NCBI GenBank assembly: GCA_963674735.2
Contig: CAXXQS010000002.1
Coordinates: 640,001 to 704,000 of the forward strand
Length of the DNA stretch: 64,000 bases
From: Myxococcota bacterium
GTDB taxonomy: Bacteria > Myxococcota_A > SURF-8
Direction: 5' to 3'
The notes under the pieces were generated by a model. The model saw only the letters and a program-made list of their open reading frames with translations. It did not search any database and was not told the origin of the DNA. Below are positions 2,521 through 21,084 of the stretch, piece by piece (position 1 is the stretch's first letter; each line of letters begins with the position of its first letter). A program made the position numbers and the translations under genes.

Positions 2521-2545
2521 GAAAAAGCCGGTCGAAAGACCGGCT
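2521..2545 (-). terminator. Intrinsic terminator after exbD
   Basis: The minus strand reads AGCCGGTC-tttc-GACCGGCT-TTTTC. Confidence 0.75.
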
Positions 2546-2587: not shown

Positions 2588-3130
2588 TCAAGGTCGGATG
2601 GACGCCTCCGCCTCATCACCGGGGGGCGCCGCCGGGACCGGTGCCTGGGCCGCGTCGGGATCGACGTTGAAGGCGTATTTCAAAATCCCCACCCGTCGCG
2701 CGCGGTCGATGAAATGGATGACGCGCCCATGGGAAACGGCCGTATCGGCCTGGATCACCATGGTCAGTTCGTTGCGCGCCATCAGCGTGAGTTGATTGTC
2801 GCTCACCGACCGCCCTTCCGCGTCGAGCCGCTGGGCTTTGTCGTGTTTGAACTCGTCGAGCAACTGCCGGAATTCCCCGTCGATGCCCTCCGCCTGCACG
2901 GCGCGTTCGCCGATCGCCACGGAACCGTCTTTTCCCAACAGCAGTGAAAACTGGTTGCGCTCCTTGGCCTCGCCCGTGTCGGCTTTGGGCAGCTCCATGT
3001 CGATGGCCGGTTTCACCATGAAGTTGGCCGTGACCATGAAGATGATGAGTAGTACCAAAACGATATCCACCAGCGGAACGACGTTGATGCCGGTGATGGC
3101 GTCGTCGTAATTGTCAACGGCGTGTGCCAT
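2588..3130 (-). CDS. exbD: ExbD/TolR-family biopolymer transport protein
   Basis: INVVPLVDIVLVLLIIFMVT transmembrane motif with the essential Asp, and C-terminal IQADTAVSHGRV. RBS AAGGAG. Confidence 0.9.
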   Translation of the reverse strand: MAHAVDNYDDAITGINVVPLVDIVLVLLIIFMVTANFMVKPAIDMELPKADTGEAKERNQFSLLLGKDGSVAIGERAVQAEGIDGEFRQLLDEFKHDKAQRLDAEGRSVSDNQLTLMARNELTMVIQADTAVSHGRVIHFIDRARRVGILKYAFNVDPDAAQAPVPAAPPGDEAEASIRP

Positions 3131-3140
3131 GATGATCTCC

Positions 3141-3797
3141 TTACGCGGCGAGCTTCGTCGGCGGTTCGCGGTTTTCGCCGGGTTCTTCGATGAAGGCCAG
3201 CAGCGTTTTTTCGAGCTGGGCGATGTTGCTCATGATCTGCTTCTGGCGGTTTTTGAAATAGTTGAAAAACACCACCGCCGGTATCGCCACCAAAAGCCCG
3301 ACGGCCGTCGCCACCAACGCCTCGGCGATGCCGCCCATCACCACGGACGGTCCGCCCTGCGCATTGAAAGCCAGATCGTGAAAGGCCTTGATGATGCCGA
3401 GCACCGTTCCCAAAAGACCGATGAACGGCGCATTCGAGCCGACCGTGCCCAGCACGATCAAGCCGCGATCGAGCTGCTGCTGCTCGCGCATCGTTTGGGA
3501 TTCCATCAGTTCGCGCACCACCGTCGCGCCCTTGTCGAAATTGGCCAGGCCCTCAGCCGCCACCCGCGATTCGGCGGTGGATTTTTCCTGGGCGCTCGCC
3601 AGCGCCTGCTCGCGCTCGCCCGCATTGAGGCGCGTGACCAGCTCGGCGCTGAAGGCTCCCGTATCGAGGCGATTTTTACGGTAGGTCCAAAACCGTTCGA
3701 CGACCACCGTCACGCTGATCAAACTGATCGCGATCATGAGATATAAAATCGGCTCGCCGCCGATGAGCGCCAGTTCCAACAGTCGATCCACCATCAT
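3141..3797 (-). CDS. exbB: MotA/TolQ/ExbB proton-channel protein
   Basis: APFIGLLGTVLGII...GIAEALVATAVGLLVAIPA signature. Start ATG at 3797 follows AAGGAG. Confidence 0.9.
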   Translation of the reverse strand: MMVDRLLELALIGGEPILYLMIAISLISVTVVVERFWTYRKNRLDTGAFSAELVTRLNAGEREQALASAQEKSTAESRVAAEGLANFDKGATVVRELMESQTMREQQQLDRGLIVLGTVGSNAPFIGLLGTVLGIIKAFHDLAFNAQGGPSVVMGGIAEALVATAVGLLVAIPAVVFFNYFKNRQKQIMSNIAQLEKTLLAFIEEPGENREPPTKLAA

Positions 3798-3857
3798 CGT
3801 CTCCTTGTGCAAGCCCGCCCGTTCGCGGGGGTTGATCCAGTCGCGGCCCGTGGGCCG

Positions 3858-4082
3858 TTACAAGCATGAACACCGCGGCCTGAATAATCTGTTACCGGCA
3901 CGCGGCAGTTTTCGCAGCCCGTTCGGGCGGGCCGGTTTGCGACGCGGTCGCCAACTCGCCAGAACGATGAGCCCGAGAACCAGGGCGGCGATCAGCGCGA
4001 CCCCCGACACTATCGCCGCAAACAACCAGAGCAGCAGATCCGGTCCAAGAAATTCAAGCAGGGGTTCCATCCACGTCGGCAT
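3858..4082 (-). CDS. Small single-pass membrane protein (74 aa)
   Basis: Strong RBS AAGGAGG 5 nt before the ATG. Hydrophobic segment LLLWLFAAIVSGVALIAALVLGLIVLA, then a basic tail ending in CSCL. Confidence 0.55.
   Translation of the reverse strand: MPTWMEPLLEFLGPDLLLWLFAAIVSGVALIAALVLGLIVLASWRPRRKPARPNGLRKLPRAGNRLFRPRCSCL
3867..3896 (-). promoter_or_regulatory. Putative ECF promoter, copy A (before exbB-exbD)
   Basis: GGTAACAG-attattcaggccg(13)-CGGTGTTCA, about 70 nt before the exbB ATG. Confidence 0.75.
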
Positions 4083-4206
4083 GGGAGCCTCCTTTCCGGC
4101 GGGCTTGAGCTCGCGTTTCAGCGGCGGCGAATCCGGTTGGCGGTCGCCGTTCGTCTTGGTTTCAACAGCCCGCGAAACACAAAGGTCGTAAAACCAATAC
4201 AACTCT

Positions 4207-4240
4207 AAAAAAGGGGGGCCGCGGGACAAAGTCCCGCGGC
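4207..4240 (-). terminator. Intrinsic terminator after the beta-barrel gene
   Basis: The minus strand reads GCCGCGGGAC-ttt-GTCCCGCGGC, then CCCC and T6. Confidence 0.65.
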
Positions 4241-4259
4241 TAGGGAAGGACAGGAAGGT

Positions 4260-5201
4260 CTAGTTGAAGGTCGCGGAGAAGAGAAGCATCCCGCCGCCCT
4301 GGTGGACGGTCAGGTCATCGCTTTTGGCATAGCCGTAGGTGCCGCGCGCCGCCAGGCCCAGGCCCCAGTTGTCGCTCACCCACCACTCCTTGCCGACCGA
4401 AAGGCCCAGGCTCACGCCGGGCATCGTCTCATACTCGTGCTCACCGTCGTCGTACATATTGAGCACGGTGAGGCTGTGACCGACATCGGCGGACAGATAA
4501 ACGTTAACCGGCATGAAGTAATAGGTGAGGCCCAAGGAAAAGCTGAGGCTGGTGAAGTCACGCTGGTAATGATCATGATCTTCGAAGAGCGTACCCCAAA
4601 GCCAGAAGTCGCCGTGCAAAATCAGGTTTTCGGTCACCGCGCCGCCGAGGGACAACCCGAAGGCCGAGGTCGGGCCGCTTTCCTCGGGGTCTTTGACATC
4701 CGGGTGATACGTCGGCGCGTCGGTTGTGCCCGAAGCGTTGAACGTCCCGAAACCCAGCCCCGGCGTCAGACGCAGGAAAAAGCCGTCGTGGGTATGCACG
4801 CCCACCGGCTCTTCCTCCGGCTCCTCGCTGATCGTGGCATCTTCCTCGCTCGTGTCCTGAGAAACGTTGAGCTTGGCCATTTCGGCTTCCGCTTTGGCTT
4901 TTTCGGCTTCGGCCTGCGCTTTTTTAGCTTCCGCTTTGGCGATTTCGGCCTCTAAGCGCGCCTTTTCCACTTTCAACCGCAACGCCTCGGCCTCCGGGTC
5001 GGGAGAGGTGGGAGGCGGCGGCGAGACGGCGTCAGAGGACGTCGCCTCGACCGCGCCGAGGGTGGGTGCAACCAACTCCGGCCGAGTGTCGCCTTGCGGC
5101 TCGGCCCAGGCGGAGTGAGTGCCGAAAAGAAGTAGAAAGGCTAGAATAGCCTGAGAAGCCACTCGTTTATAGATCGCTGTCGATTGTGTTCGCGTGTTCA
5201 T
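4260..5201 (-). CDS. Exported protein: Pro linker, AEAEK coiled coil and small outer-membrane beta-barrel
   Basis: RBS GGAGG. Signal peptide ends SAWA-E. Alternating amphipathic strands run from HTHDGFFLRL to the C-terminal LLFSATFN. Confidence 0.75.
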   Translation of the reverse strand: MNTRTQSTAIYKRVASQAILAFLLLFGTHSAWAEPQGDTRPELVAPTLGAVEATSSDAVSPPPPTSPDPEAEALRLKVEKARLEAEIAKAEAKKAQAEAEKAKAEAEMAKLNVSQDTSEEDATISEEPEEEPVGVHTHDGFFLRLTPGLGFGTFNASGTTDAPTYHPDVKDPEESGPTSAFGLSLGGAVTENLILHGDFWLWGTLFEDHDHYQRDFTSLSFSLGLTYYFMPVNVYLSADVGHSLTVLNMYDDGEHEYETMPGVSLGLSVGKEWWVSDNWGLGLAARGTYGYAKSDDLTVHQGGGMLLFSATFN

Positions 5202-5236
5202 GCTCTCCTCCGTGGATGACGAGTCGGCCGCTGTGA

Positions 5237-5401
5237 TCAGCCGTCTTTCCGAGTCAGGATCTTGTCGATTTCGACCTGCTCGCGCCAATTCAAATAGACA
5301 CCACGTCCCATCCAACTCGCCGAAATCAACCCGACCATCGCCAACAAAGTCGACGTGGCATCGCCCGCCAGACTGGCTGTTTGGATGAGTTGTTCGAACA
5401 T
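5237..5401 (-). CDS. Small membrane protein (54 aa)
   Basis: Perfect RBS TAAGGAGG before ATG 5401. Sequence MFEQLIQTASLAGDATSTLLAMVGLISASWMGRGVYLNWREQVEIDKILTRKDG has one hydrophobic segment. It lies directly behind two promoter motifs. Confidence 0.7.
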   Translation of the reverse strand: MFEQLIQTASLAGDATSTLLAMVGLISASWMGRGVYLNWREQVEIDKILTRKDG

Positions 5402-5448
5402 GGCGTCCTCCTTATCGGTCGGCGATGTCGATCTCGCCTTGCATGCCG

Positions 5449-5478
5449 TAAACACCGCCGAGGAGAGAATGTGTCACT
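5449..5478 (-). promoter_or_regulatory. Putative ECF promoter, copy B
   Basis: AGTGACAC-attctctcctcgg(13)-CGGTGTTTA, 48 nt before ATG 5401. Confidence 0.7.
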
Positions 5479-5519
5479 CTTTTCATTTTTCATCGTGCCC
5501 ATGCACGCGGAAAGGAAGA

Positions 5520-5536
5520 AGCAAAGGACGTGCCAA
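5520..5536 (-). promoter_or_regulatory. Sigma-54 (-24/-12) promoter
   Basis: TTGGCACGtcctTTGCT matches the TGGCACG-N4-TTGCW consensus exactly. It is intergenic and correctly oriented. Confidence 0.7.
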
Positions 5537-5755
5537 CTTTGTCGTATTGTTTACAGCCCTACCTGGAGCGGCCTGGCAAACACCGAAGCGTTTGGAGCGC
5601 CGCCCGCAAAAGCACCATTCTGGGATAGAATTCTCGTGATGGTTTGAAATCACAGACAAAAACGGGATGACGCCAAAATGGTATAGCTCATTTTGACGCA
5701 ACGCTTGTCAAGTGGCGGGAATGGGTCTGACAGAAATGTCCGACTCAGACACCAG

Positions 5756-6505
5756 CTAGGCGTCCAACAGAAAGCGGTAGGGGATGACGATCTGCACCGG
5801 AACGGGAGTGTCGCCTTTGTAGCCGGGAACGAAACGCGATTGTTTGGCGGCCTTGACGGCGGCGCGGGCCAGTTGACGATGGGAAGCCTTGAGCACCTTG
5901 ATGCGCTTGACGCGACCGTCCACGCCGATCAGGACGCGCAGTTCCACGAAGCCTTCCTCGCCCTCGCGTCGCAGCTCGGGCGGATACAACGGTTCCACCT
6001 TGTATTTGAACGAGGGGGTGCGGGAGAGTTCGTAAAGCGGCACCGGCGCGGGCTGCCCCTTCGCTTTCGTGGCGGGCAGAGGCGCGACCGCTTCTACCGG
6101 CGTGGGCTTGGTTTCCATGGTCTTTTCAAGCGTGTTGCCGACCCGCACCGCGACCGTCCCCGTGCCCTCCGCCACCGATTCTTTCGTCACACCGAAAACC
6201 GGCGGCGGCGGCGGCGTGTCGGCCTTGGGTGGCGGCGTTTGACGATTGGCACGCGGCGGTCGGGTCGGAAGCTTGGGTTTCGGTTTGGGTTTGGGCGGCG
6301 CTTCCACCGGCTTGATTTCCGGCGGTGCGTCAGGCGGCGGCGGCGGCGCAATCAAGGTCACCCGACTCGGTCCCGGCGGCGGCGGTGCGGCGGCGGGCAC
6401 GTATTCACCGACCCACAGAAATCCGACATGCAGCCCCAGCGACACGATCAGCGGCAACCAGATAAACGAGCGCTTGGGAGACGTAACCGAGATGCGAATC
6501 ATCAC
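5756..6505 (-). CDS. tonB: Energy transducer TonB
   Basis: N-terminal transmembrane segment with S-x3-H (VSLGLH), Pro/Lys-rich linker, and TonB-C domain (YPPELRREGEEGFV...RFVPG...PV). RBS GGAGG; start GTG 6505 or ATG 6502. Confidence 0.9.
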   Translation of the reverse strand: MMIRISVTSPKRSFIWLPLIVSLGLHVGFLWVGEYVPAAAPPPPGPSRVTLIAPPPPPDAPPEIKPVEAPPKPKPKPKLPTRPPRANRQTPPPKADTPPPPPVFGVTKESVAEGTGTVAVRVGNTLEKTMETKPTPVEAVAPLPATKAKGQPAPVPLYELSRTPSFKYKVEPLYPPELRREGEEGFVELRVLIGVDGRVKRIKVLKASHRQLARAAVKAAKQSRFVPGYKGDTPVPVQIVIPYRFLLDA

Positions 6506-6562
6506 AAACCTCCGCCGATATCAAAGGCCGCCCGTCCCGCCGGGACAGGGCGCGTTAACGGA

Positions 6563-6592
6563 TGAACACCGCCGGGCCCGGAAACTGTCACC
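6563..6592 (-). promoter_or_regulatory. Putative ECF promoter, copy C (before tonB)
   Basis: GGTGACAG-tttccgggcccgg(13)-CGGTGTTCA, about 58 nt before the start. Confidence 0.75.
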
Positions 6593-6684
6593 GCTGCCGC
6601 AAACGAAAAATAAACCGATATGAAATCAATTAGATACAAAGAAACGAAATCGATCTCGCGCCCCCCGGATCTCTCAGAAAAGCG

Positions 6685-6713
6685 TTGAGTAAAAAACAAT
6701 ACCATGCTAGGAT
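6685..6713 (+). promoter_or_regulatory. Sigma-70-like promoter of the Cys-rich lipoprotein gene
   Basis: TTGAGT-N17-TAGGAT with an extended TG. Confidence 0.5.
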
Positions 6714-6789
6714 TCATCGATATTCGGAAGTAGGTTCCGGCTGAAAACGCCCCCTAAATCATGAGATTCGAGAAGTTGGCGAGGTAGTT

Positions 6790-9003
6790 ATGAAAAGCAT
6801 AGCGCATGGTGTAATACAGGTTCTGCTACTCGGCTGTTTGATCGGCCTGCTGGCCGCCTGTTCCGGAACGTCCACGACGACCGTCGACGGCGACACGCCC
6901 GTCTATCAACCGGACGGCGATAACGAATTGCCCGGCGATGGCGACGACCCCGATGGCGACGACCCCGACGGCGACGACCCCGACGGCGACGACCCCGACG
7001 GCGACGACCCCGACGGCGACGACCCCGACGGCGACGACCCCGACGGCGACGATCCGGACGGCGACAGCACGGACGGTGACAGCACGGACGGAGACAGCAC
7101 GGACGGAGACACCGACGGCGACACGGACGGCGACGATCCGTGGCACTGCGCCGTCGATACCGACTGCCCCTGGGGCTTTGCCTGCGTGGTGGACGGCGAA
7201 GGGGACGGCTGCGTATCGATGAACGAATGCGACGACGACGACGATTGCCTCACCGATTACGAGTGCACCGCAGTCGCCAACTGGAATATCTGCCGCCTGG
7301 CCGGGGATGAATGCTCGGAAGAGCTACCCTGCAGCTACGGCTTCGCCTGCTGGCCCACCGCCACCGGACGTTTCGTCTGCCAGAACGCCAACGAATGCGG
7401 AACCGACGCCGATTGCGAAACCAACGAAGTCTGCATCGACGGTCCCGATTGGAAAATCTGCGAAAGCGACGCCAACGACTGCTACCAGCACACCGACTGC
7501 AATTTCCACTTCGCCTGCAATACCGACAACGAGCCCAACCGCTGCGAATACGCCAGCACCTGCACGTCCAACGACGACTGCAGCTTCGGCAATGTCTGCC
7601 GCCAGGTGGAAAACTGGAAAGAGTGCAAACTGGGCCTCAACACCTGTTCCTCCGACGCCGATTGCCCGCCCGACGAATACTGCCAGGGCGTTGTCGGCAG
7701 CTTGGGCAGTTGCCAATCGCGCAACGAATGCGAGAGCGACGCCGACTGCGGTGCGCAGCAACGTTGCGTCAACAACGGTCTCTACACCGAATGCATCGAC
7801 GCCCCCACCTGCGCCGTCCACACCGACTGCGAATACGGGTATCGCTGCGAAAACAACATTTGCGAATACGCCAACGAATGCAACGTGGATGACGAGTGCG
7901 GTCCCAACGCGCGCTGCCTGCGCGACGGCGAAAACTGGAAAATCTGCGTGGGCATGAACACCGAATGTTCCGATCACAGCGATTGCCAGTTCGGCTACAT
8001 GTGCAATTCGGACGTCAACCCGGCCGTGTGCGCCTACGCCAGCACCTGCAGCTCGGACGAGGATTGCGGTTCCATGGAGGCCTGCGAGGTGGTCGAAAAC
8101 TGGAAGGAATGCAAATTCGACTGGTCCTTCGACTTCTGCGGATCCGACGCCGACTGCGAGCCGGATGAATTTTGCGAGAGCGTGCTCGGCAGCTACGGCA
8201 CCTGCAAATCGCTCAACGAATGCAGCGACGACACCGACTGCCCGGCCGACTACGTTTGCGAGAACAACGGCACCTACAACGAATGCGTCGAAGCCAACCC
8301 CTGCCAGCAGAACACCGATTGCGCCATCGGGTATCGCTGCGTGGTGTCCGATCCGCGCAACTACTGCGAATACGCCAACGAATGCGCCTCCGACGCCGAC
8401 TGCGAAGCCTGGCAGTCCTGCCAGGTGGAGGGCAACTGGACGGTCTGCAAGCTGGCCTGGAACAATCCCTGCACCTCCGACGACGGCTGCGCCGCCGATG
8501 AATGGTGCGACCTGACCGTCGGCCCCATCGGTATCTGTCGCTCGCGCGACCAGTGCATGGTGGACGGCGATTGCGGCGAGGGTCTGGTGTGCGAGGACAA
8601 CGGCACCTACAACGAGTGCGTCCCCGCCACCGAACAGAACTGCTGGTTCGACTTCCAGTGCCCGGAAAACTGGAACTGCGTCGATGGCCAATGCCAACCC
8701 ACTTACGCGGGTATGTGCGAGAATGTGGAAGGCCAGTGGACGGTCTGGTTCTCGTCGCCGACCTGCCTGCTCATCTCGGCCGGCACCGTGCTGGAGTTCA
8801 TGCCTGAGGACGGTTGCGACGGAGCGGTGAAAACCATCAACTCACCCATCGACCTGGGCACCTTCACCGAAACCTCCACCGGTCACTACGATGTCAGCTT
8901 CGGTTTCATCTACCAATGCACCGCCACCGTCACCCTGGGCACGCTGATGAGCATGGATTGCCCGGTCGGCTGCGGCGGCATCCAGTTGTCACGCGGCTTG
9001 TAA
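6790..9003 (+). CDS. Cys-rich repeat lipoprotein with DGDDP stalk
   Basis: Lipobox LAA-C, DGD repeats, many CxxDxDC...C modules, and a short beta-rich C-terminal domain. Confidence 0.85.
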   Translation: MKSIAHGVIQVLLLGCLIGLLAACSGTSTTTVDGDTPVYQPDGDNELPGDGDDPDGDDPDGDDPDGDDPDGDDPDGDDPDGDDPDGDDPDGDSTDGDSTDGDSTDGDTDGDTDGDDPWHCAVDTDCPWGFACVVDGEGDGCVSMNECDDDDDCLTDYECTAVANWNICRLAGDECSEELPCSYGFACWPTATGRFVCQNANECGTDADCETNEVCIDGPDWKICESDANDCYQHTDCNFHFACNTDNEPNRCEYASTCTSNDDCSFGNVCRQVENWKECKLGLNTCSSDADCPPDEYCQGVVGSLGSCQSRNECESDADCGAQQRCVNNGLYTECIDAPTCAVHTDCEYGYRCENNICEYANECNVDDECGPNARCLRDGENWKICVGMNTECSDHSDCQFGYMCNSDVNPAVCAYASTCSSDEDCGSMEACEVVENWKECKFDWSFDFCGSDADCEPDEFCESVLGSYGTCKSLNECSDDTDCPADYVCENNGTYNECVEANPCQQNTDCAIGYRCVVSDPRNYCEYANECASDADCEAWQSCQVEGNWTVCKLAWNNPCTSDDGCAADEWCDLTVGPIGICRSRDQCMVDGDCGEGLVCEDNGTYNECVPATEQNCWFDFQCPENWNCVDGQCQPTYAGMCENVEGQWTVWFSSPTCLLISAGTVLEFMPEDGCDGAVKTINSPIDLGTFTETSTGHYDVSFGFIYQCTATVTLGTLMSMDCPVGCGGIQLSRGL
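6937..7140 (+). repeat. 15-bp tandem repeat: DGDDP x8, then DGDST x3, DGDT x2, DGDDP
   Basis: ga(c/t)ggcgacgacccc-type units at 6937-7056, followed by variants. Confidence 0.95.
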
Positions 9004-9030
9004 ACCGCCGTTTTTTATCGGCAATCTCAC

Positions 9031-9056
9031 GGCCGCCCTTCGGGGCGGCTTTTTTT
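9031..9056 (+). terminator. Intrinsic terminator
   Basis: GGCCGCCC-ttcg-GGGCGGCT followed by T6. Confidence 0.8.
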
Positions 9057-9290
9057 GGGGGGAGAGAAACTCCGACTCGCGGCCAATGGACGGAGAGGCG
9101 ATCGAAACGGAATCGCTGAAAATCATCCTTCCACCGCTTTTCCTTCATTTCGATTGACGAAAGGTCGATTCGTTGGTAGAACGGCATCCAATGCGCACGA
9201 TCTGAGACCTGGCAGCGATTCGTTCAGCGAATGTAGCTTTTCAAGTGGAATTCCAAGACCAACGGTTTCCCGGGAGAAAAGGAGCAAACC

Positions 9291-10466
9291 TTGCAGGGGA
9301 TTAAAAACGGCATCAATTTCTTGTTGGAGAATAGCCTCTTCCTAATCGGCGGCACCATCGCGGCGTTGCTGATGGCCAACATGGATCACGAAAGCTATCA
9401 CCACATCATCCACGCCGAACTGTTCAAAGGCGTCAACTTCCACTTCCTTGTCAACGACGTCCTGATGTGCTTCTTCTTCGCGTTGGCGGCCAAGGAAATC
9501 TGGGAAGCCCTGCTCCCCGGCGGCGCGCTCAGCTCGCCCAAGAAAGCGGCCACCCCGCTGATCGCCACCGCAGGCGGCGTGATCGGACCGGCCTTGCTTT
9601 ACCTGGCGGGCGTCCACTTTTTTGAAGCCAGCGAACTCACGCGCGGCTGGGCCATCCCCTGCGCAACCGACATCGCCTTTTCTTACCTGGTGGCGCGCCT
9701 GGTGTTCGGCAAGGGACACCCGGCCATCCCCTTCCTGCTGCTGCTGGCCATCGCCGACGACGCAGCGGGCCTGATCATCCTGGCGGTGGCCTATCCCACC
9801 GGCGAAATGCACCTCGTAACGTTCTTCCTGGCCCTGGGCGGAGCCATCGCCTTCAACCTGCTGGTTCTGCGTAAGATGCTGAATATTCAGAACTTCTGGG
9901 CCTACTTACTGATCGCCGGACCGGTCGCGTGGTACGGGTTCCACGAGGGCGGCATTCATCCCGCCCTGGCGCTGGTACCCATCATTCCCACTCTACCGCA
10001 TGCCAAACATGACGACGGGCTGTTCGAAGGAACCCAAACCGATTATCCGCACGACCCGCTCAATGCCTTCGAACACTGGTGGAAAAATCCGGTGGAACTC
10101 ATCCTGATGCTGTTCGGATTCGCCAACGCGGGCGTGGCGCTTTCGGCCATGGGCCTCGGCACCTGGCTGGTCACCGGCGGTCTGCTGATCGGAAAACCGG
10201 TGGGTATCTTCCTGTGCACCCTCGTCGCCGTCAAACTGATGCGGCTTGAAATGCCTCAGGGCATGAACTTCCGCGATGTGGTGGTGCTCGGCTGCATGGC
10301 CGGTATCGGCTTTACCGTTGCGCTGTTTGTGGCCACCGTGGCCTTCCCGGCGGGCGATACCCTCGACGCGGCCAAGATGGGCGCCCTATTCTCCTTCGCC
10401 GCGGCCATCGTTTCCTTTGTCGTCGCCATCGTTTTGCGCGCCGGCCGATTCGCCCCCAAAGCCTGA
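9291..10466 (+). CDS. nhaA: Na+/H+ antiporter NhaA
   Basis: VNDVLM, GWAIPCATDIAF, LAIADD, GKPVG and GIGFT motifs. TTG start after AAGGAG. Confidence 0.92.
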   Translation: MQGIKNGINFLLENSLFLIGGTIAALLMANMDHESYHHIIHAELFKGVNFHFLVNDVLMCFFFALAAKEIWEALLPGGALSSPKKAATPLIATAGGVIGPALLYLAGVHFFEASELTRGWAIPCATDIAFSYLVARLVFGKGHPAIPFLLLLAIADDAAGLIILAVAYPTGEMHLVTFFLALGGAIAFNLLVLRKMLNIQNFWAYLLIAGPVAWYGFHEGGIHPALALVPIIPTLPHAKHDDGLFEGTQTDYPHDPLNAFEHWWKNPVELILMLFGFANAGVALSAMGLGTWLVTGGLLIGKPVGIFLCTLVAVKLMRLEMPQGMNFRDVVVLGCMAGIGFTVALFVATVAFPAGDTLDAAKMGALFSFAAAIVSFVVAIVLRAGRFAPKA

Positions 10467-10474
10467 CTCTCGTC

Positions 10475-10518
10475 ACGGCGACGGACCCTCCCATGGGTCT
10501 GTCGCCGTTTGTTTTTTC
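10475..10518 (+). terminator. Intrinsic terminator after nhaA
   Basis: ACGGCGACGGACCC...GGGTCTGTCGCCGT stem followed by a T-tract. Confidence 0.7.
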
Positions 10519-10596
10519 CCGACTATTGAAGAGCGATGAAATACATGTTACCCTTTCTCCATCTAGGAGTTCGACGTTTCGGCTATCACAAGCCCG

Positions 10597-11817
10597 TTGC
10601 TCGACGAGACTGTCTCGGCGAGCATCACGCCTGAGGGGATCGGCTATCGACGTATGATCGCAACACGGATTACACCGCTACGCAGCGAGAGCGACTGGCA
10701 GGACTGTCGGGAGCGCCTGCAGGCCTTCGAAAAGCTCTGCGCCCCCGATTGTTTCATGAGCTGGGCCTACCAGCACGCCGTCTGGAAGCTGGTGGCTCCC
10801 GAAAAAACCTGCTGGCTCATGGAAGTCGGTGCCCACGGCGAACCCTTGGCGACCGCCCTCTGGGCCGAAGCCACCACCACCCGCTGGCTCACCAATTTTC
10901 GCATTCTGCGCAGCCTGGATTACAACGTGATGCAGATGGCCCCCATGATGCTGCGGGCCGGACGCGAGCGGGAAGCCTGCCACGCCCTGGTGGACGCCCT
11001 GCCCAAACTGGCCAACGCCAGCCAGACCAATCTGGTGCGCCTGTACAAAATCAATGCCGAAAGCGCCCAGCCGCTCATCGAGGCCTTGAAAACGCACGAT
11101 GTACCCCACCAGGTACGCCCCTTCAACCGCTCCCATCGCATCCTCCTGACCGACGATCTCAACGAGTATTTCGCCCAGAAATCCAAGAAATCGGTGCGCA
11201 ACATCCGACGGCTGGGCAAGAATCTCGAAAAAGACCTGGGCGGCGAACTCAACCTGCAGCGTCATCGCGGCGCTTTCTGCGAACGGCCCGACTTCGAAAC
11301 CGACCTGCAAAAATTCGAAGATCTGCGCTGCCGTTCCTGGCAACTCTCCCAAAGCGGCGGAAACGGTCACGTCCATGGGAAAGACGTCATGGCTTTTTAC
11401 CGTGAAGCCTGCGAAGACTGGAAACAGAAAGGATGGCTGGATTTGATCGTGATGCAGGCCGGAGAAACGCCCGTAGCCGGACAGCTCAACGTCATCATCG
11501 ATCAGACTCAATGGGTGGTGCTCACCGCCTACGACCAGAAACTGGCGCGCTACTCCCCCGGACGCGTGATGTTTTATCGCCAACTGTTCGACAGCTTCGT
11601 CATGGGCGACCGCCTGGTGGACTTCGGCGGCGAGAACGAAGATTGGAAACAGTACTGGTCTAACGACACGCAGGACACCCTGCAGATTTCCTGGGCCATG
11701 CGCGGGCTTAAAAGCGCGGTCTGGTCGTTGGCGCAAAAACTCTTGCGCTCGGGCGACGGCAAAATGCCGCTTCCCATCGTCAACCGCAACTCCATCAAAG
11801 GAAACGAAACAGGTTGA
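10597..11817 (+). CDS. CelD/BcsL-like GNAT acetyltransferase
   Basis: C-terminal YDQKLARYSPGRVM...VDFGG..EDWKQYW pattern of Acetyltransf_6 proteins. The true start may be ATG 10654. Confidence 0.75.
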   Translation: MLDETVSASITPEGIGYRRMIATRITPLRSESDWQDCRERLQAFEKLCAPDCFMSWAYQHAVWKLVAPEKTCWLMEVGAHGEPLATALWAEATTTRWLTNFRILRSLDYNVMQMAPMMLRAGREREACHALVDALPKLANASQTNLVRLYKINAESAQPLIEALKTHDVPHQVRPFNRSHRILLTDDLNEYFAQKSKKSVRNIRRLGKNLEKDLGGELNLQRHRGAFCERPDFETDLQKFEDLRCRSWQLSQSGGNGHVHGKDVMAFYREACEDWKQKGWLDLIVMQAGETPVAGQLNVIIDQTQWVVLTAYDQKLARYSPGRVMFYRQLFDSFVMGDRLVDFGGENEDWKQYWSNDTQDTLQISWAMRGLKSAVWSLAQKLLRSGDGKMPLPIVNRNSIKGNETG

Positions 11818-11978
11818 CACAACACAAAAATTCCCGGTCGATTCGCCCCCAAAGCCGACCCGACATAACCCCCCTGAACTACTTACTAATTGCTGCAGCC
11901 TTTCATTATTTTCTTGTCAATCGGACACCCAACACTGTATGCTGGGTGTATTCAGAAACCACAGGATTATAATGCCCT

Positions 11979-13553
11979 TTGGCTGGGAGGCTCCCGATTA
12001 CCAAGCGCCCCAATCATCCCGATTCGAGTCCGCAAGAAACCGCTGTTTTGCAGCGACAGATAGATGATTTGCGCCGACGTCTGGCCCAACACGAGCCGGT
12101 CGAAGGAGCCTTGCGTATTTTTCGCAATCTCTACGAAGCCATGACGGAAGGCGTGGCCTTGCATGAAGTGGTGGTCGACGCCGACAGAAAACCGATAGAC
12201 TACCGCATCATGGAGGTGAATCCCGCCTACGAATCCATCATCGGCATCCGCCGCGATGAAGCACGCGGCAAACTGGCTTCCGAGCTATACGGCACCAGCT
12301 CGCCGCCTTACCTCAAAGAATACAGCCATGTGGCCTTCTCCGGGGTGCCGGTCTCATTCGACACCTATTTTCCCCCCATGGACAAACATTTCACGATCAA
12401 GGTGTTTTCGCACCATCCCGGTCATTTCGCCACCGTATTCGAAGATATTACCAGCCGCAAACAAGCCGAAGAAAAGATCCGAAAGAGCGAAGAGCTGTTT
12501 CGCACCATTGCTGAAAAAGCGGTGGATTCGATCTTTACCAAAGATCTCGACCGGCGCTATACCTTCGTCAACCCCGCCATGGCGCAGGTCTTCGGCGTGG
12601 ACGGAGCGACGCTGATCGGCAAGACCCCAGGTGAACTCTTCGACGCAGAAACGGCCGCCATCATCGACGAAGTGGACATCGCAACGCTTGAGGGGCATGT
12701 CGTCGATGAAATCCGACGCTTGAGTCTGGGTGACGAATCGCGCGACTTCCATACCGTCCAGGTTCCCTTGAAACACAACGGCGGTGACGTTTACGGCATG
12801 TTGGGATTCGTACGCGATGTGACCGAGAAAAAACGGCGGGAAACGGAATTGCGGCACCAGCAAAAACTGGAAGCCCTGGGAACTCTCGCCGGAGGGGTCG
12901 CCCACGAGATCAACAATCCCATCAACATCATCGCCAATTATGCCGAACTGATTCAAAGCCGGGTTTCCCCGGACGACACAATCGCCGATTATTCACAGGA
13001 AATCCTGTCTGAAAGCGACCGGATCGCCAAAATCGTCGCAAACCTGCTGGCTTTCGCACGCCAGGATATCGAGGAACCGGCTCCGGCAATCATGCCCGAA
13101 ATCATCGAAACCACCTTGTCGCTGACCGGGAAAATCCTCACCCAACACCACATTGAACTCAAGCTCGAACTGCCCGCGGATCTCCCCTCGATCACCTGCC
13201 GCCGCCAACAGATCATGCAGGTTCTGCTCAATTTGTTGACCAACGCCAAAGACGCGCTCAATGATAAGTATCCCCAGTATAATGAAGATAAGATCATCCA
13301 CATCAGTTGCAAAGTCGTGCAGCGCGGAAACGCTCGCTGGCTGCGCTGCATCGTGAAGGACCACGGCACCGGAATTCCGGCGGATCAGATCGAAAAGGTG
13401 TTCGATCCTTTCTACACAACCAAAGCCCCTCACAAGGGGACGGGACTGGGCCTCGCCATCAGCCACAACATCATTACGGAGCACGGCGGCGAGTTACGAA
13501 TTGAAAGTCGGCCGGGGAGCTATACCCGATTCATCATCAATCTCCCCGTCTGA
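11979..13553 (+). CDS. Cytoplasmic PAS-PAS sensor histidine kinase
   Basis: Two PAS/PAC units, H-box GVAHEINNP, N-box NLLTNAKDA, and DHGTG / FYTTK / GTGLGL boxes. Start uncertain. Confidence 0.92.
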   Translation: MAGRLPITKRPNHPDSSPQETAVLQRQIDDLRRRLAQHEPVEGALRIFRNLYEAMTEGVALHEVVVDADRKPIDYRIMEVNPAYESIIGIRRDEARGKLASELYGTSSPPYLKEYSHVAFSGVPVSFDTYFPPMDKHFTIKVFSHHPGHFATVFEDITSRKQAEEKIRKSEELFRTIAEKAVDSIFTKDLDRRYTFVNPAMAQVFGVDGATLIGKTPGELFDAETAAIIDEVDIATLEGHVVDEIRRLSLGDESRDFHTVQVPLKHNGGDVYGMLGFVRDVTEKKRRETELRHQQKLEALGTLAGGVAHEINNPINIIANYAELIQSRVSPDDTIADYSQEILSESDRIAKIVANLLAFARQDIEEPAPAIMPEIIETTLSLTGKILTQHHIELKLELPADLPSITCRRQQIMQVLLNLLTNAKDALNDKYPQYNEDKIIHISCKVVQRGNARWLRCIVKDHGTGIPADQIEKVFDPFYTTKAPHKGTGLGLAISHNIITEHGGELRIESRPGSYTRFIINLPV

Positions 13554-13589
13554 AAATGATTGCAACCTCTCAATCGAGAAGAGAAAACA

Positions 13590-13982
13590 ATGGCTAACAT
13601 TCTGATTATCGATGATGAACTCGGTATCAGGAAAACTCTCGGCCTTTTTCTCGAAATACGCGGACATCGAACCTACTTGGCCGAGGACGTCCGCACCGGA
13701 CTCTCCACCCTGGCCGCTCAGCACGTCGACGCGGTGATTTGCGATGTGCTGCTACCGAACCGCTCCGGCCTGGAATTTCTGGAAGAAGTTCGAAAGTCGC
13801 AACCCACCCTGCCGGTCATCATGATCAGCGGCGAACCGACCCGGCGTGTCAAGCAAATCGCTAAAAACCTGAACGCCTACGACTTCCTGGCCAAACCCAT
13901 CCACAGCGACACGATCTGCAAATTGGTCGATCAAGCACTGGGGAGCGTGCGAACGACATCGCACTCCAAACCCGAATTCTAG
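13590..13982 (+). CDS. Single-domain response regulator
   Basis: ILIIDD...VICDVLLP...ISG...LAKP receiver motifs, directly after the kinase. Confidence 0.88.
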   Translation: MANILIIDDELGIRKTLGLFLEIRGHRTYLAEDVRTGLSTLAAQHVDAVICDVLLPNRSGLEFLEEVRKSQPTLPVIMISGEPTRRVKQIAKNLNAYDFLAKPIHSDTICKLVDQALGSVRTTSHSKPEF

Positions 13983-14030
13983 TCGGACATCGGCGAGCAC
14001 GGATCGGACAGAGCCCAGACAAACCGCAAC

Positions 14031-16373
14031 CTAGATCTCCACACCCAGGATAAAGCCGGGACCGAGACGGACGACATCTTTGTCACTTTTCTCGTAAATC
14101 TTCCAGTGGGGCAGATAGCTGACCTGATCGATGGGGATCGCGTTGTCGCTTTGCTCGTGGATCAGCGATAAGGTGGGACCGAAGATGATGGAGCGACGCT
14201 CGTCCCATTTCCAGCCGAACACAAAACGCAGCTTGTCGATGTAGGTCCAGCTTTTGGTGTCGCCCATATCCATCTGGCTCCACAGCAGGGTATCGATATC
14301 GAGGAACCAGCTTTCAGTCAGCGGGATATGCCCGCCGATGCCCCAGCCGAACGAAACCGAGCGGGTGTCGAACAGCGGTTGCAGACCGAGCGCGAACAGG
14401 TTGTAGACGTATTTGCTGCCGTGTTTGAACGCGGCGTTGACCAGGGCCGTGTCACTGGTCCAGAATTGCCCGTGCACCTGTCCATTGGGCACGATGCTTA
14501 AAAATCCGATGGGCGCGTCCACATCCTCGGCATAGTTGATGAAACCCAATTGCGCCCCACGCAGACGGCCGACGTTGACGTTGAGAAAGCCCATCTGGGC
14601 TCCGGCGGACGGTTCGCGCCCGGTAGTTATATTCACATAGCCCGCCTGCAAACCGGTGAAGGAACCGGTGGTCACGGAAGCCAGGCTGTATTGCAGGCCG
14701 GTCGCATCCCCGGCGACCACCGAAGCCAGGGCCAGTTGCGCCCCGATGAAATCCCCATAGGTAACATTGGCCAACGAAAACTGCGCACCGGTGACGTTGC
14801 CGACGGTCACGTTGGCCAGCGAGAGCTGCGCACCACGCACGTGGTCGATGGTGACGTTGGTCAAGGCGAGCTGCGCGCCGGTGACATTCCCGACCGCGAT
14901 ATCCACCAGGGCCAATTGCGCACCGGTGAAGTTACCGCCGGTGTAATCCACCAGGCCGTATTGCGCCCCCATGAAATGGCGGCTGTTGTGGTTGTAAATA
15001 CCGGCGAGTTGCAGGCCTTTGCTATCGCGCTGGGCGACGTTGACGATCCCCGCCACCGATACGCCCAAGGCATCGCGCTGGGTGACATTGACGATACTGG
15101 TCAATTGCAAACCCGCCATGTCGTCGTTTTGCCAGTTCAAAAACCCGGCCAAACCGAAACCGCGCAACTTGTCCTGTTCGTTGGCGAACAAGCCAAGAGA
15201 AACGTTGTTTTCGATCGGGCCTTCGTCTTCGTAAGCTTTGTTGATGTCGGCGGGCGGAAAGAATCCGATGTTGAACGGCACGCTTTTATATTTTTTACCC
15301 TCGTCGCCCCGCCCGCGCGCCACGGTCGACTCGGCGCTGATGCTGGTGAAATCGTTGAGCGCCAGCATATAAGGCCGATTCATTTCCAGGTTGAATTCCG
15401 CGATCGAATAGGCGCCGTCGCGTTCGAGCACCATGCGGTAGTTGCCGGGTTCGATCCCCAGTTCCATCGGCCGCCCGGCGCTTTTGCCCACCTCCGCCAC
15501 CAGACGCATGTTGGCATCGCGCAGATACAAACGCCCCGCCACTCCGCCTTCGACCAGCAAACTGGCGGTGTTTTCGCGCAGTTCGGTCAACACCAGTTCG
15601 CCGGTTCCCGAAAGCTGGATATCGTAGCTCGGATGCTGAGCGCCGCTCTGGGTGGTTTCGGTGCGCCCCAGAGTTTCGTTGAAGGCATACTGATAGGCCT
15701 CGTTGAGCGTCACGCGCCGATCGCCGGTGACGTCCGCCGCCCCGCGCAGCCCCGAAACCAGGTAATGGGTGAAGAAGGAACCCTCGATACGGTCGGATTC
15801 CTGGGCCGCTTCATCGGCGGAGGCCGACGTTAAAAAGGCGTGTCCTTCCAGCGAGATGGAAGCATCGGACAGAAAAGGCGGACGCGTTACGCCGCCCTTG
15901 CTGCGCGTCATGGCCCCGGACGAACAGGAATCGAGTACGATCACACGCACGGCGGCGGGCAAGGCCTCCACCCGCTTGCGCAGATCCTGGTAACGCACGC
16001 TGCGGCCATAGAGCAACAGGCCCTCTTCGTCGGAATGTCCCGAATAATAGACGAACACTTCCTGCCGCTCATCGGCGCGTCGCGTGGCGCGCATGCGCGT
16101 TTCAAGCTCCTGCAGGCCACTGAAAAACTCGTTGCGGTCGGGATCGATCAGCAGCACGCGGTCTTTGGGGGAGATGCCGCCCAGATCTTCGAGCACGTTG
16201 GCCACCGCCTGGGCATCGTCATCGGCGTAGCGCAGCAAAATGCGCCGCCCGCCGCCGTCGTTGGCACCGACGATGAAGGCGAAACGCCGTACCGACGACT
16301 CTTCCGCCGCATGCAACGATCCCGCCGCCGACAGGGTCAGCAGCAGGAGTAGTCCGGTTAATGCCCAGCGCAT
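14031..16373 (-). CDS. Exported caspase-family (C14) protease with GAQL-repeat solenoid and C-terminal beta-strand domain
   Basis: Signal peptide MRWALTGLLLLLTLSAAGSLHA. Catalytic dyad motifs YYSGHS and VLDSCSSG. About 15-aa repeats G(A/L)Q(L/F)xLxN(V/I). C-terminal amphipathic strands end GFILGVEI. Confidence 0.88.
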   Translation of the reverse strand: MRWALTGLLLLLTLSAAGSLHAAEESSVRRFAFIVGANDGGGRRILLRYADDDAQAVANVLEDLGGISPKDRVLLIDPDRNEFFSGLQELETRMRATRRADERQEVFVYYSGHSDEEGLLLYGRSVRYQDLRKRVEALPAAVRVIVLDSCSSGAMTRSKGGVTRPPFLSDASISLEGHAFLTSASADEAAQESDRIEGSFFTHYLVSGLRGAADVTGDRRVTLNEAYQYAFNETLGRTETTQSGAQHPSYDIQLSGTGELVLTELRENTASLLVEGGVAGRLYLRDANMRLVAEVGKSAGRPMELGIEPGNYRMVLERDGAYSIAEFNLEMNRPYMLALNDFTSISAESTVARGRGDEGKKYKSVPFNIGFFPPADINKAYEDEGPIENNVSLGLFANEQDKLRGFGLAGFLNWQNDDMAGLQLTSIVNVTQRDALGVSVAGIVNVAQRDSKGLQLAGIYNHNSRHFMGAQYGLVDYTGGNFTGAQLALVDIAVGNVTGAQLALTNVTIDHVRGAQLSLANVTVGNVTGAQFSLANVTYGDFIGAQLALASVVAGDATGLQYSLASVTTGSFTGLQAGYVNITTGREPSAGAQMGFLNVNVGRLRGAQLGFINYAEDVDAPIGFLSIVPNGQVHGQFWTSDTALVNAAFKHGSKYVYNLFALGLQPLFDTRSVSFGWGIGGHIPLTESWFLDIDTLLWSQMDMGDTKSWTYIDKLRFVFGWKWDERRSIIFGPTLSLIHEQSDNAIPIDQVSYLPHWKIYEKSDKDVVRLGPGFILGVEI
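14530..15170 (-). repeat. Degenerate ~45-bp coding repeats (G-A-Q-L-x-L-x-N-V; LA_2272/VC2662-like)
   Basis: Units such as TGAQLALVDIAVGNV / TGAQLALTNVTIDHV / RGAQLSLANVTVGNV. Confidence 0.8.
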
Positions 16374-16402
16374 GATCCCACACTCTCCATGATGCTCGTC
16401 CG

Positions 16403-17185
16403 TCAAGGTTTGGGCAAGGTCAGCGACCAGCTCGCCAGTCCGTCCGGCAGAGCAAGCGCGCCATTGTGCATCCGGACGGATTGGCGTGTCAGCGCCTGCG
16501 CAGCGTTCAAAACATCCTGAACGGCAAAAGGCTGCTCGGAGGTCACGAAAAAGAAGCGTTCGAAATCGGGAGCGTCGTCCAATTCATAGGCGAAATCGAG
16601 TAGTTGCGCACCTTGCGCATTGAGCTCGACCGCCTGTTTACCTCGCGCCGGATAGTGGCGTGTCACCGTCCCGTTTCCATCCAGCGACACGATCACGCCG
16701 AAGCGTCCGGCCCCGGCGACATACGAAAGTTGCAACACATCCCCGGCGCGCACGAGAGTCGCCTCGTTCAATTGTTCGTTTCCGGCGGCCAGCTTGCGAA
16801 AGATCACCAAATGCGCTTCGAGCCCCTTGGTATAAATGATTTCACCCGAATCCCCGCCGTTGGGTCCACCCAGATAGGGATAGCTGATAAACAACGCCGC
16901 CACGACGACGACCACGGAGGCCAGCGAGGCGGCCCAAGTAAAGGAAAATCTCTGAGATTGACGGCCTTTTTCGTGCCGTCCGGCCCGCCGCGCAATCTTG
17001 TCGGCCATTTTGGCGGGCGGATGCGTAAAGAGAATGTCGCGGTTGGAGGCTTCGAGCGCCTGCAAGCGCGCCTGCAACTCGGGATCCTGTTCGAGGGCGA
17101 CCCGGATCACCTCGGCGCGCTCGGGCGGACAATCGCCCTGAAGGTATTGTTCCAGCCACCAGTCGCTGATCGGTTTCGCATTCAT
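16403..17185 (-). CDS. Putative membrane anti-sigma factor (ActD-like / DUF4384-type periplasmic domain)
   Basis: Overlaps the sigma stop codon (ATGA). N-terminal LEQYLQGD anti-sigma-like helix, one transmembrane segment, then IYTKG...GDVLQLSY...AYELDDAPDFERFFFV. Confidence 0.75.
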   Translation of the reverse strand: MNAKPISDWWLEQYLQGDCPPERAEVIRVALEQDPELQARLQALEASNRDILFTHPPAKMADKIARRAGRHEKGRQSQRFSFTWAASLASVVVVVAALFISYPYLGGPNGGDSGEIIYTKGLEAHLVIFRKLAAGNEQLNEATLVRAGDVLQLSYVAGAGRFGVIVSLDGNGTVTRHYPARGKQAVELNAQGAQLLDFAYELDDAPDFERFFFVTSEQPFAVQDVLNAAQALTRQSVRMHNGALALPDGLASWSLTLPKP

Positions 17186-17667
17186 GCTATCACCCCCTCC
17201 AGCTCTTTGAGCGAGCGGGTCAATTTGCGCAACCGTTTGCGCACACCCGAGACCGACAGGCCCACCTGTTCGGCGGTCTCCTCCAAGGTGAAACCGTCGA
17301 GCAGATGCAGCACCGCCATGGTTTGCGACGACGCAGGTTCGTCCTTGAACAGCCGTTTGAGCACCGAGCGGGCACTGTTGCGGCTTTCGTCGTCTCCGGC
17401 CTGGGCGATACGCGCCAACAGGTCGTCGTCGCCATCTTCCGGGCGGCGCTTGCGCGAACGGATGCGGTTGAGGCTCTCATTGGTGGCGATAGTCAGCAAT
17501 AAACTCGTGGGGTTGCGGTCGTCGAGTTGTTCTTGCCGTTGAATCAATTTCACGAACACATCCTGCATCACGTCCAGTGCCTCCTCTTCATTCTTGAGCA
17601 GGTAGCGGCAGCGCCTGAGAACCATGGGGCCGTATTTTCTGTAAAAAGCTTCTACGTCGATCGCCAA
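17182..17667 (-). CDS. ECF RNA polymerase sigma factor
   Basis: Region 2 (YGPMVLRRC...ALDVMQDVF) and region 4 (DGFTLEETAEQVGLSVSGVRKRL). TTG start at 17667 after GGAGG; the ORF-track extension to 17814 is probably not translated. Confidence 0.9.
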   Translation of the reverse strand: MAIDVEAFYRKYGPMVLRRCRYLLKNEEEALDVMQDVFVKLIQRQEQLDDRNPTSLLLTIATNESLNRIRSRKRRPEDGDDDLLARIAQAGDDESRNSARSVLKRLFKDEPASSQTMAVLHLLDGFTLEETAEQVGLSVSGVRKRLRKLTRSLKELEGVIA

Positions 17668-17691
17668 GGCCCTGCCTCCGCTTCCAGAAAG

Positions 17692-17721
17692 TGAACACCG
17701 GATATGCGCGTATCTGTCACC
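17692..17721 (-). promoter_or_regulatory. Putative autoregulatory ECF promoter, copy D
   Basis: GGTGACAG-atacgcgcatatc(13)-CGGTGTTCA, 25 nt before the sigma start. Confidence 0.78.
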
Positions 17722-18862: not shown

Positions 18863-18866
18863 TACC

Positions 18867-20816: not shown

Positions 20817-21084
20817 GTCTTCCTCACTTCCCGGCCGCCCGCCGAAGTCCACGTTACGTAAAAAGACCCGACTCGCGTGCCACCGTTACCGATTGACTCT
20901 ATCTTACCCAAGCTGCCGGAAAAACACCACCCTTTCCGTTTGAAAGCCTCCGCCGCTCGATACCCCCACTTTCGCCATCAGCATAAAAATTGTTGATTTT
21001 TCGAGGCCGGTTGGATAAGTTGGGGAGCCTTATGCGGGTTGCCGCCATATATAGTGTACCTCTGATTCGGCAAGGAGCTGATCC

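Follow-up and report, generated by a model that had tools for sequence, protein, structure and literature searches.

The window analyzed here, a 64,000-nucleotide stretch of a Myxococcota genome (contig CAXXQS010000002.1 of GenBank assembly GCA_963674735.2, positions 640,001 to 704,000), encodes a sigma factor of the extracytoplasmic function (ECF) type, a membrane anti-sigma factor, and an exported caspase-like C14 protease in one operon, called the triad below, and, apart from it, TonB, ExbB, and ExbD together with a small candidate outer-membrane protein (OMP). With a probability of roughly 70%, these are two parts of one regulon: an autoregulated triad operon and a set of Ton units that are outputs of its sigma factor, with the receptor lost here. 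In the labels used below, G000 is the window's genome (5.26 Mb, three contigs, 94% complete), so that the window is G000:C2:640001-704000; G001 and so on are other genomes, and L0xx numbers are fetched loci. The features that carry the argument are the following.

2526-2545, minus strand: intrinsic terminator 3′ of exbD, an 8-pair stem and then a T run
2588-3130, minus strand: ExbD (PF02472, 88 bits, above the cut-off)
3141-3797, minus strand: ExbB (PF01618, MotA_ExbB, 123 bits, above the cut-off)
3869-3895, minus strand: promoter motif before exbB-exbD, exact match
4218-4240, minus strand: intrinsic terminator 3′ of the OMP gene, a 10-pair stem and then a T run
4260-5201, minus strand: 313-amino-acid (aa) exported protein, candidate small OMP, with a signal peptide and a weak OMP_b-brl match
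5451-5477, minus strand: promoter motif before the unit made up of a micro-open reading frame (micro-ORF) and the OMP gene, exact match
5756-6505, minus strand: TonB (TonB_C, 64 bits, above the cut-off)
6565-6591, minus strand: promoter motif before tonB, exact match
14031-16373, minus strand: exported C14 protease (Peptidase_C14, 42.6 bits vs a cut-off of 21.4; LA_2272 repeats)
16403-17185, minus strand: single-pass anti-sigma factor (AlphaFold2 model; weak NCBIfam anti-sigma matches, E 6e-5)
17182-17667, minus strand: ECF sigma factor (Sigma70_r2 and r4_2; TIGR02937, 72 bits vs a cut-off of 42.9)
17694-17720, minus strand: promoter motif before the sigma operon, exact match

On comparative grounds, the triad and tonB–exbBD are functionally linked through a shared, conserved motif of the ECF type. 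The bipartite motif GTRACA-N14-CGGTGTT is found in front of four units, those of the ECF gene, of tonB, of the OMP, and of exbB, and all four window copies lie on the coding strand, 27-72 nt ahead of a start codon with a Shine-Dalgarno sequence. The initial annotation of this DNA had placed the ECF, anti-sigma, TonB, ExbB, and ExbD genes under a shared promoter motif, and this was borne out by the four exact copies in the window and the 10 found genome-wide. Exact copies in the 5.26 Mb of G000 number 10 with the N14 spacer vs 1 with N13 and 0 with N15. The regulon list was drawn from regular-expression motif scans, and a reversed-pattern control gave one match in total across all genomes scanned. 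The Ton cluster (exbD, exbB, OMP, tonB) is 7.5 kb from the sigma operon on the same strand, and five unrelated plus-strand genes (6790-13982) split the two. Because each unit has its own motif and terminators follow the OMP gene and exbD, three separate motif-driven units stand beside the sigma operon; and since tonB, the OMP unit, and exbB-exbD each lie behind the sigma factor's own motif, they would be outputs of that sigma factor.

In the ORF listing the sigma gene runs on as far as 17814, a stretch that includes the promoter motif. The true start is probably the TTG at 17667, since orthologues (58-66% identity) align from there and the longer frame spans the promoter. The sigma operon appears to be autoregulated through its own promoter motif. 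A search of PDB sequences with the ECF profile found only SigW-type ECFs. In G000, this ECF group has a single member, and there is likewise a single C14 protease. The sigma factor has regions 2 and 4 only, and its partner combines a helical anti-sigma domain at the N-terminus with a single membrane helix, as in pairs of an ECF sigma factor and a class I anti-sigma factor.

The window's sigma factor is predicted to read GTRACA-N14-CGGTGTT. The promoter assignment is purely comparative, which leaves room for a rival in which another regulator reads the motif and its sharing links nothing. We give this rival very little credence. The two-box layout with its fixed 14-nt spacer, its constant placement on the coding strand, and its short distance to the start codon all speak against it, as does the failure to find a sigma-70-like promoter before tonB, the OMP unit, or exbB where one was looked for. 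The motif also precedes the ECF gene across phyla (45 of 59 loci, at up to 2 mismatches and within 200 nt upstream). It is missing where the ECF is missing: five related genomes have 0 exact copies each, and the protease and an ECF orthologue (E<=1e-10) were likewise not found there.

At least 552 relatives of the protease were confirmed among at least 594 candidate stretches, and 80 loci were fetched around full-length relatives, in which ECF and anti-sigma genes were located by tblastn. The triad is widespread in Myxococcota and is also found in Spirochaetota. The anti-sigma gene is immediately upstream of the caspase gene in 77 of the 80 loci, and an ECF gene is present in 59. In some ECF loci the exact motif lies just before the anti-sigma gene instead of the ECF gene. 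Anti-sigma–caspase pairs stay joined behind the motif even without a neighboring sigma gene. Pairs of this kind, behind an exact motif and with no sigma gene detected alongside, occur in Myxococcaceae (L066, L044, L046, L056, and others). At least one such genome, G041, carries a full triad at another site as well, so a single sigma factor may act with two anti-sigma/protease pairs. Triad-bearing genomes besides G000 hold between two and seven exact motif copies in most cases: G001 2, G006 5, G008 3, G009 2, G019 2, G041 7, G044 4, and G045 2.

The link between the triad and the TonB motor, first suggested in the initial annotation, is upheld by motif sharing in relatives where the units are physically unlinked (e.g., G006 and G008), and the co-occurrence and motif sharing that it proposed to look for across Myxococcota and Spirochaetota was found (e.g., in G041 and L079). 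At no more than 1 mismatch, the motif precedes the tonB orthologue in all four order relatives (G001, G006, G008, and G009), and it precedes exbB in G001, G005 (an exact copy), G006, and G008. There is none before exbB in G004, which has no triad. In G001, from the same family, the ECF–anti-sigma–caspase genes are followed by convergent exbD-exbB behind an exact motif and, further on the minus strand, by genes for a 350-aa protein and an 806-aa receptor and by tonB behind a 1-mismatch motif. In G006 the triad is on one contig, and a second contig has tonB behind a 1-mismatch motif, the gene of an 836-aa receptor behind an exact one, and a 369-aa gene; exbBD lies elsewhere again, with a 1-mismatch motif before it. 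In G008 the tonB-receptor unit, exbBD (two exact motifs), and the triad are hundreds of kilobases apart, and in G009 the order is motif, tonB, motif, receptor, and a 370-aa gene. The complete Myxococcaceae genome G041 has exact motifs before a full triad, a protease-less paralogue, and an exbB-exbD-tonB-receptor operon. In the Spirochaetota locus L079 everything is together: exbB-exbD-tonB, a motif (1 mismatch), the receptor, a motif (2 mismatches), and ECF–anti-sigma–caspase. These comparative data on motif-driven tonB, exbBD, and receptor genes fit one of the two options that the initial annotation had offered, that the motor is an output of the pathway.

Several results weigh against so unified a picture. 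Physical linkage is rare, with the triad within 10 kb of exbBD in 3 of the 80 loci and of a receptor in 5. The triad-bearing genomes G042 and G043 have 0 exact motif copies genome-wide. No motif was found within 200 nt upstream of 14 of the 59 ECF genes, several of which have an exact copy ~800 nt upstream. At up to 2 mismatches, there is no motif before exbB in G019 or before the OMP orthologues of G001 and G009.

The motif also drives a protease-less paralogue in G000, G006, G009, and G041. The G000 copy (C2:779392-780846, outside the window) encodes a 484-aa exported protein behind an exact motif. It corresponds to the C-terminal half of the protease (solenoid and tail, 47% identity), has no C14 domain, and carries an N-terminal Ala/Glu/Lys coiled-coil stretch resembling that of the 313-aa OMP. 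The paralogue may be a decoy or a partner of the protease. As the motif in relatives drives both the receptor and this solenoid-tail paralogue, the ancestral system would be an ECF-controlled, complete TonB-dependent outer-membrane transport system.

The receptor is where G000 differs from its relatives. As the initial annotation had reported, no 22-strand TonB-dependent receptor is encoded in the window; the 9 Plug/barrel matches of G000 are all elsewhere, and none of these receptors adjoins an exact motif site. The annotation had gone on to treat the lack of a classical receptor as a feature of the system, and this did not hold. In relatives, proteins of 800-920 aa match Plug, and most also match CarbopepD_reg; on their domain content these are conventional receptors. 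They carry the motif, or lie inside a motif-driven tonB unit, in G001, G006, G008, G009, G041, and G045 and in loci L043, L079, L081, L101, and L110. The motif directly precedes the receptor in L043, L081, L101, L110, and L140. The L079 receptor matches Plug alone, and that of L140 matched only CarboxypepD_reg. The receptor at L138:2113-4794 (G041) has a TonB_C-like domain at residues 52-127, N-terminal to Plug.

Only one homologue of the regulon receptor is found in G000, at C1:262665-265121 (receptor barrel model, 78.6 bits). It is 55% identical to the lost receptor type and sits in a cluster of tonB2, receptor, and a 359-aa lipoprotein. Upstream of this cluster there is no motif at up to 2 mismatches, and matches with 3 mismatches lie only inside genes. 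In the receptor tree, the G001 and G008 receptors from motif-bearing clusters make up a clade of their own (100/99), outside which the copies on G000 C1 and G001 C86 fall, and in the tonB tree the window gene is placed with the tonBs of G001 and G008 that bear the motif (85/89 and 91/93). The simplest reading of these trees and gene orders is that G000 lost the receptor and lipoprotein between tonB and exbB, where the micro-ORF/OMP unit now stands, and that the change was local and lineage specific. The receptor-less cluster is best read as this loss and not as a new kind of machine. Because the assembly is 94% complete, the missing receptor could in principle be unassembled, which would count against a loss, though the cluster is contiguous.

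The initial annotation taken literally for G000 would have a motor with no 22-strand partner, in which TonB acts on the caspase tail or on the 313-aa OMP and so energizes proteolysis of the anti-sigma factor. The motif-driven G000 cluster without a receptor, with the small OMP unit in the receptor's place, is what one would see in such a case. The branch of the window TonB is long (1.06 vs 0.41-0.60 in orthologues), which could reflect a changed partner, and the G008 orthologue of the OMP adjoins the ECF operon behind a 1-mismatch motif. We nevertheless consider this model highly unlikely. Every relative examined, closer and more distant, keeps a conventional receptor in the regulon, and in G008 the OMP orthologue and the conventional receptor coexist. 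G000 keeps 9 receptors, including the 55%-identical paralogue, and the window TonB could serve any of them. There is no indication of a TonB box in the caspase or the OMP, and no evidence that TonB energizes signaling was found in the comparative data.

The motor cluster's small beta-barrel and two micro-proteins, as the initial annotation described them, fared unevenly. The 313-aa protein has a signal peptide, a coiled-coil stretch of Ala, Glu, and Lys, and orthologues in G001 (48%) and G008 (39%), but its OMP_b-brl match (E 5.6e-4, 20.6 bits) is below the 28.7 cut-off. Two micro-ORFs accompany the cluster.

3858-4082, minus strand: 74-codon micro-ORF with one hydrophobic helix and a strong Shine-Dalgarno sequence; its 3′ end holds the exbB promoter motif; candidate only
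5237-5401, minus strand: 54-codon micro-ORF with a strong Shine-Dalgarno sequence; candidate only

Neither has significant relatives in the fetched loci, and they are not claimed as genes. In the translations of the motor proteins themselves, the TonB membrane helix contains S-x-x-x-H and the helix of ExbD contains an Asp.

Further genes lie behind the remaining exact motif sites of G000, all outside the window. At G000:C2:324298-329847 the genes behind an exact motif run in its own direction and encode an exporter of the MMPL/sterol-sensing type, Dxr, and an M50 protease of the RseP type that has four PDZ domains. The sites C1:872788, C1:129219, C2:312905, and C2:1889471 precede, respectively, a resistance-nodulation-division (RND) pump (HlyD-type plus AcrB), an LPP20 lipoprotein and then an Ig-repeat protein of 1482 aa, an acyltransferase of the PlsC type, and an exported protein of 311 aa. 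Because the RseP-type gene is downstream of an exact motif, the likely site-2 protease may itself belong to the regulon.

Taken together, these extra G000 targets fit a broader envelope response as well as a dedicated uptake system, a further point against the narrower regulon proposed here. They favor a rival in which the ECF is a general sigma-E-like envelope-stress factor, the Ton system is one of many outputs, the caspase-solenoid is an induced envelope protein (e.g., a quality-control protease), and other proteases degrade the anti-sigma factor. The rival gains from the pump, the exporter with dxr and rseP, the acyltransferase, the LPP20 lipoprotein, and the exported proteins behind exact sites, and from the fact that the caspase is always behind the motif; in L088 and L089 (2 of the 80 loci), the motif is directly upstream of the caspase gene and no anti-sigma gene was detected. 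We still hold this account to be unlikely. The adjacency of the anti-sigma and caspase genes is nearly universal (77/80) and persists without a sigma gene, and the anti-sigma's DUF4384 domain is typically joined to proteases. Homologues of the extra G000 members were not found at the relatives' other motif sites (L033-L037), where there are unrelated genes; in the loci fetched around relatives' motif sites, only Ton genes, the triad, and the paralogue recur.

How the triad would sense and transmit a signal can be approached from its proteins. The third gene of the sigma operon was described in the initial annotation as an exported C14 protease with a repeat solenoid and a barrel-like tail. The Peptidase_C14 match, a signal peptide visible in the translation, and a solenoid at residues 388-622 agree with the first two parts; the tail is less certain, as the model gives it long hairpins (residues 656-779) but a predicted local distance difference test (pLDDT) score of only 52-72. 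In order, the protease has a metacaspase-like C14 domain, a beta-sandwich, and a beta-solenoid of the LA_2272 type, and it ends in a tail rich in beta structure. The AlphaFold2 model is mediocre overall (pLDDT 61), with the solenoid at about 80. A Pfam scan of the protease at E<=0.01 found no CHAT family. H113 and C150, the His-Cys dyad of the p20-like domain, are invariant in 72 protease sequences, and the closest solved sequence is Metacaspase-1 (7qp0), with which the DSC(H/x)SG motif aligns. The invariant D53 and D148-S-C150 align with the "NDA" and "DSCHSG" of the same structure, and may correspond to the acidic S1 pocket of metacaspases, which cleave after Arg/Lys. An ESM Atlas search with tail residues 620-780 gave small unnamed Bacteroidota proteins as the nearest clusters and named outer-membrane-type families at 0.81-0.83, which serves as a lead only.

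In its model (pLDDT 88), the anti-sigma factor starts with four helices, which a membrane helix (89-100), a disordered linker (101-118), and a beta-sandwich (121-260) follow. K120 and G121 are invariant in 55 of 55 family members, and R118 is found in 36. The linker that precedes them is modeled with low confidence and varies in length across the family. DUF4384 is matched by 14 of the 55. No FecR domain was matched in the window anti-sigma at E<=0.01 or E<=10, nor is it among the families matched by the 55 homologues. A fold search of PDB with the model returned nothing at E<=0.001 and generic Ig-like sandwiches only, and the family profile found nothing meaningful among PDB sequences. The idea that the beta-sandwiches of the anti-sigma and the caspase are duplicates was rejected after a profile–profile comparison showed no similarity (probability 0.5%).

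It is plausible, from gene order and residue conservation, that the protease and the anti-sigma act together through cleavage of the anti-sigma. In the proposed sequence of events, an envelope signal would cause the protease, possibly hanging from the outer membrane, to cut the anti-sigma factor at the invariant Lys-Gly (Lys120) that ends the disordered juxtamembrane linker. RseP would then remove the stub, and the freed sigma factor would switch on the triad operon along with the Ton genes, the OMP unit, and the protease-less paralogue; in relatives, the receptor would be a further target. Two points temper this. The invariant Lys-Gly could be structural and not a cleavage site, and with a tail pLDDT of 52-72 the model leaves the topology of the protease, periplasm vs surface, unsettled. 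A complex prediction for caspase residues 25-365 with anti-sigma residues 104-260 scored 0.00 in a run without controls and is evidence neither way.

One close parallel by description is the Craspase of type III-E CRISPR systems, in which, according to the available text of the reports, the caspase-like Csx29 cuts Csx30, which binds the ECF-type sigma factor RpoE (10.1101/2022.08.17.504292; PMC10028731). Both have a caspase-superfamily protease, an anti-sigma-like partner cut (here, putatively) in a flexible linker, and an ECF sigma factor. The first of these reports, a preprint, describes in its accessible part that DUF4384 is frequently found in fusion with proteases and that one group of Csx30, the protein cut by the caspase-like protease, has it as the C-terminal domain (10.1101/2022.08.17.504292). 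The comparison is by description and not by sequence: Csx29 is a cytoplasmic TPR-CHAT protein activated by Cas7-11 and RNA, whereas here the C14 enzyme has a signal peptide, DUF4384 lies on the far side of a membrane helix, and Ton genes form the output. It is possible, although we would put it at clearly less than even odds, that the exported metacaspase acts on a DUF4384-bearing anti-sigma factor as its dedicated site-1 protease, with the cut at Lys-Gly, that the pair is the envelope counterpart and perhaps the evolutionary source of Csx29–Csx30–RpoE, and that the paralogue is an induced decoy.

Other known systems share parts of this design. As in FecI–FecR–FecA, an ECF sigma factor, a membrane anti-sigma factor, TonB–ExbB–ExbD, and, in relatives, a receptor are co-regulated, and proteolysis of the anti-sigma factor is the likely switch. 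Unlike FecIRA, the window anti-sigma has no FecR domain, and an exported metacaspase is the conserved third gene. There is no STN match in the regulon receptors scanned, whose N-terminal extensions are CarbopepD_reg_2/CarboxypepD_reg, TonB_C-like, or none. This variation between lineages argues against a conserved signaling domain of the FecA kind, and the receptor looks like an output here. With Sigma-E/RseA/DegS/RseP, the system has in common a single-pass anti-sigma factor whose anti-sigma domain is N-terminal, a genome that encodes an M50 protease of the RseP type, and envelope-related targets. It differs in that the candidate site-1 protease is an operon-encoded C14 metacaspase-like enzyme instead of a PDZ serine protease, and that the periplasmic domain is of the DUF4384 type.

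Two further systems invite comparison. In Dma, an ECF is likewise controlled by an inner-to-outer-membrane device without a TonB-dependent transducer, but the device is one polypeptide, while here the anti-sigma factor and a possibly outer-membrane-anchored protease are separate, and the anchoring is only putative. Oar/PopC of Myxococcus xanthus, as described in the accessible part of PMC6434023, also combines a receptor bearing an N-terminal extension, its own exbB-exbD-tonB genes, and a functional tie to a protease. It is likened by description only: Oar exports a subtilisin-like protease, and there is no sign here of the caspase passing through the receptor.

Bacterial metacaspases are abundant, and their physiological roles and substrates are largely unknown. 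Operons of a sigma factor and a metacaspase were noted in 2012, four in M. xanthus and others in Anaeromyxobacter, Haliangium, Sorangium, Ralstonia, and Fibrobacter (Asplund-Samuelsson et al. 2012, PMC3501461), and are probably of the same type as the triad. In its accessible part that paper gives gene neighborhood only, with no anti-sigma role, promoter motif, regulon, or TonB link. A literature search found no description of these four and no paper linking a metacaspase or caspase operon to an anti-sigma factor and TonB, with the limit that supplementary ECF-group tables, or Table S2/Dataset S1 of PMC3501461, could list the operon type or its ECF group; in the paper that re-classified ECFs, the word "caspase" occurs 0 times in the main text. 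A metacaspase family of at least 552 confirmed relatives belongs to a fixed operon with an ECF sigma factor and anti-sigma factor, a pair for which a promoter can now be predicted, as can a small conserved regulon made up of a Ton system with receptor and the protease-less paralogue. This turns a gene-neighborhood observation into a pathway that can be tested directly in tractable myxobacteria, with a possible relationship to the caspase-like/anti-sigma/sigma module of type III-E CRISPR systems. If the metacaspase is indeed a site-1 protease, a bacterial metacaspase would gain a defined physiological substrate and a defined output, TonB-dependent transport.

The genes around the two parts of the regulon have other affiliations. 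The five plus-strand genes at 6790-13982 encode a Dickkopf-like Cys-rich protein, NhaA, a FemAB-like GNAT protein, a PAS histidine kinase, and a response regulator. The first (6790-9003) is 737 aa long, contains three cysteine-rich repeats of the Dickkopf_N type, and matches DUF7107; there is no motif before its gene. Immediately upstream of the sigma operon, at 18050-20852 on the minus strand, are genes for an Ig protein of the DUF1573/HYDIN type and for a WD40 propeller protein of 661 aa. The PAS histidine kinase and response regulator (11979-13982, plus strand) adjoin the triad; homologues of the kinase and the regulator are no more than 10 kb away from the triad in, respectively, 12 and 16 of the 80 loci, and their upstream position is fixed in several Myxococcus genomes.

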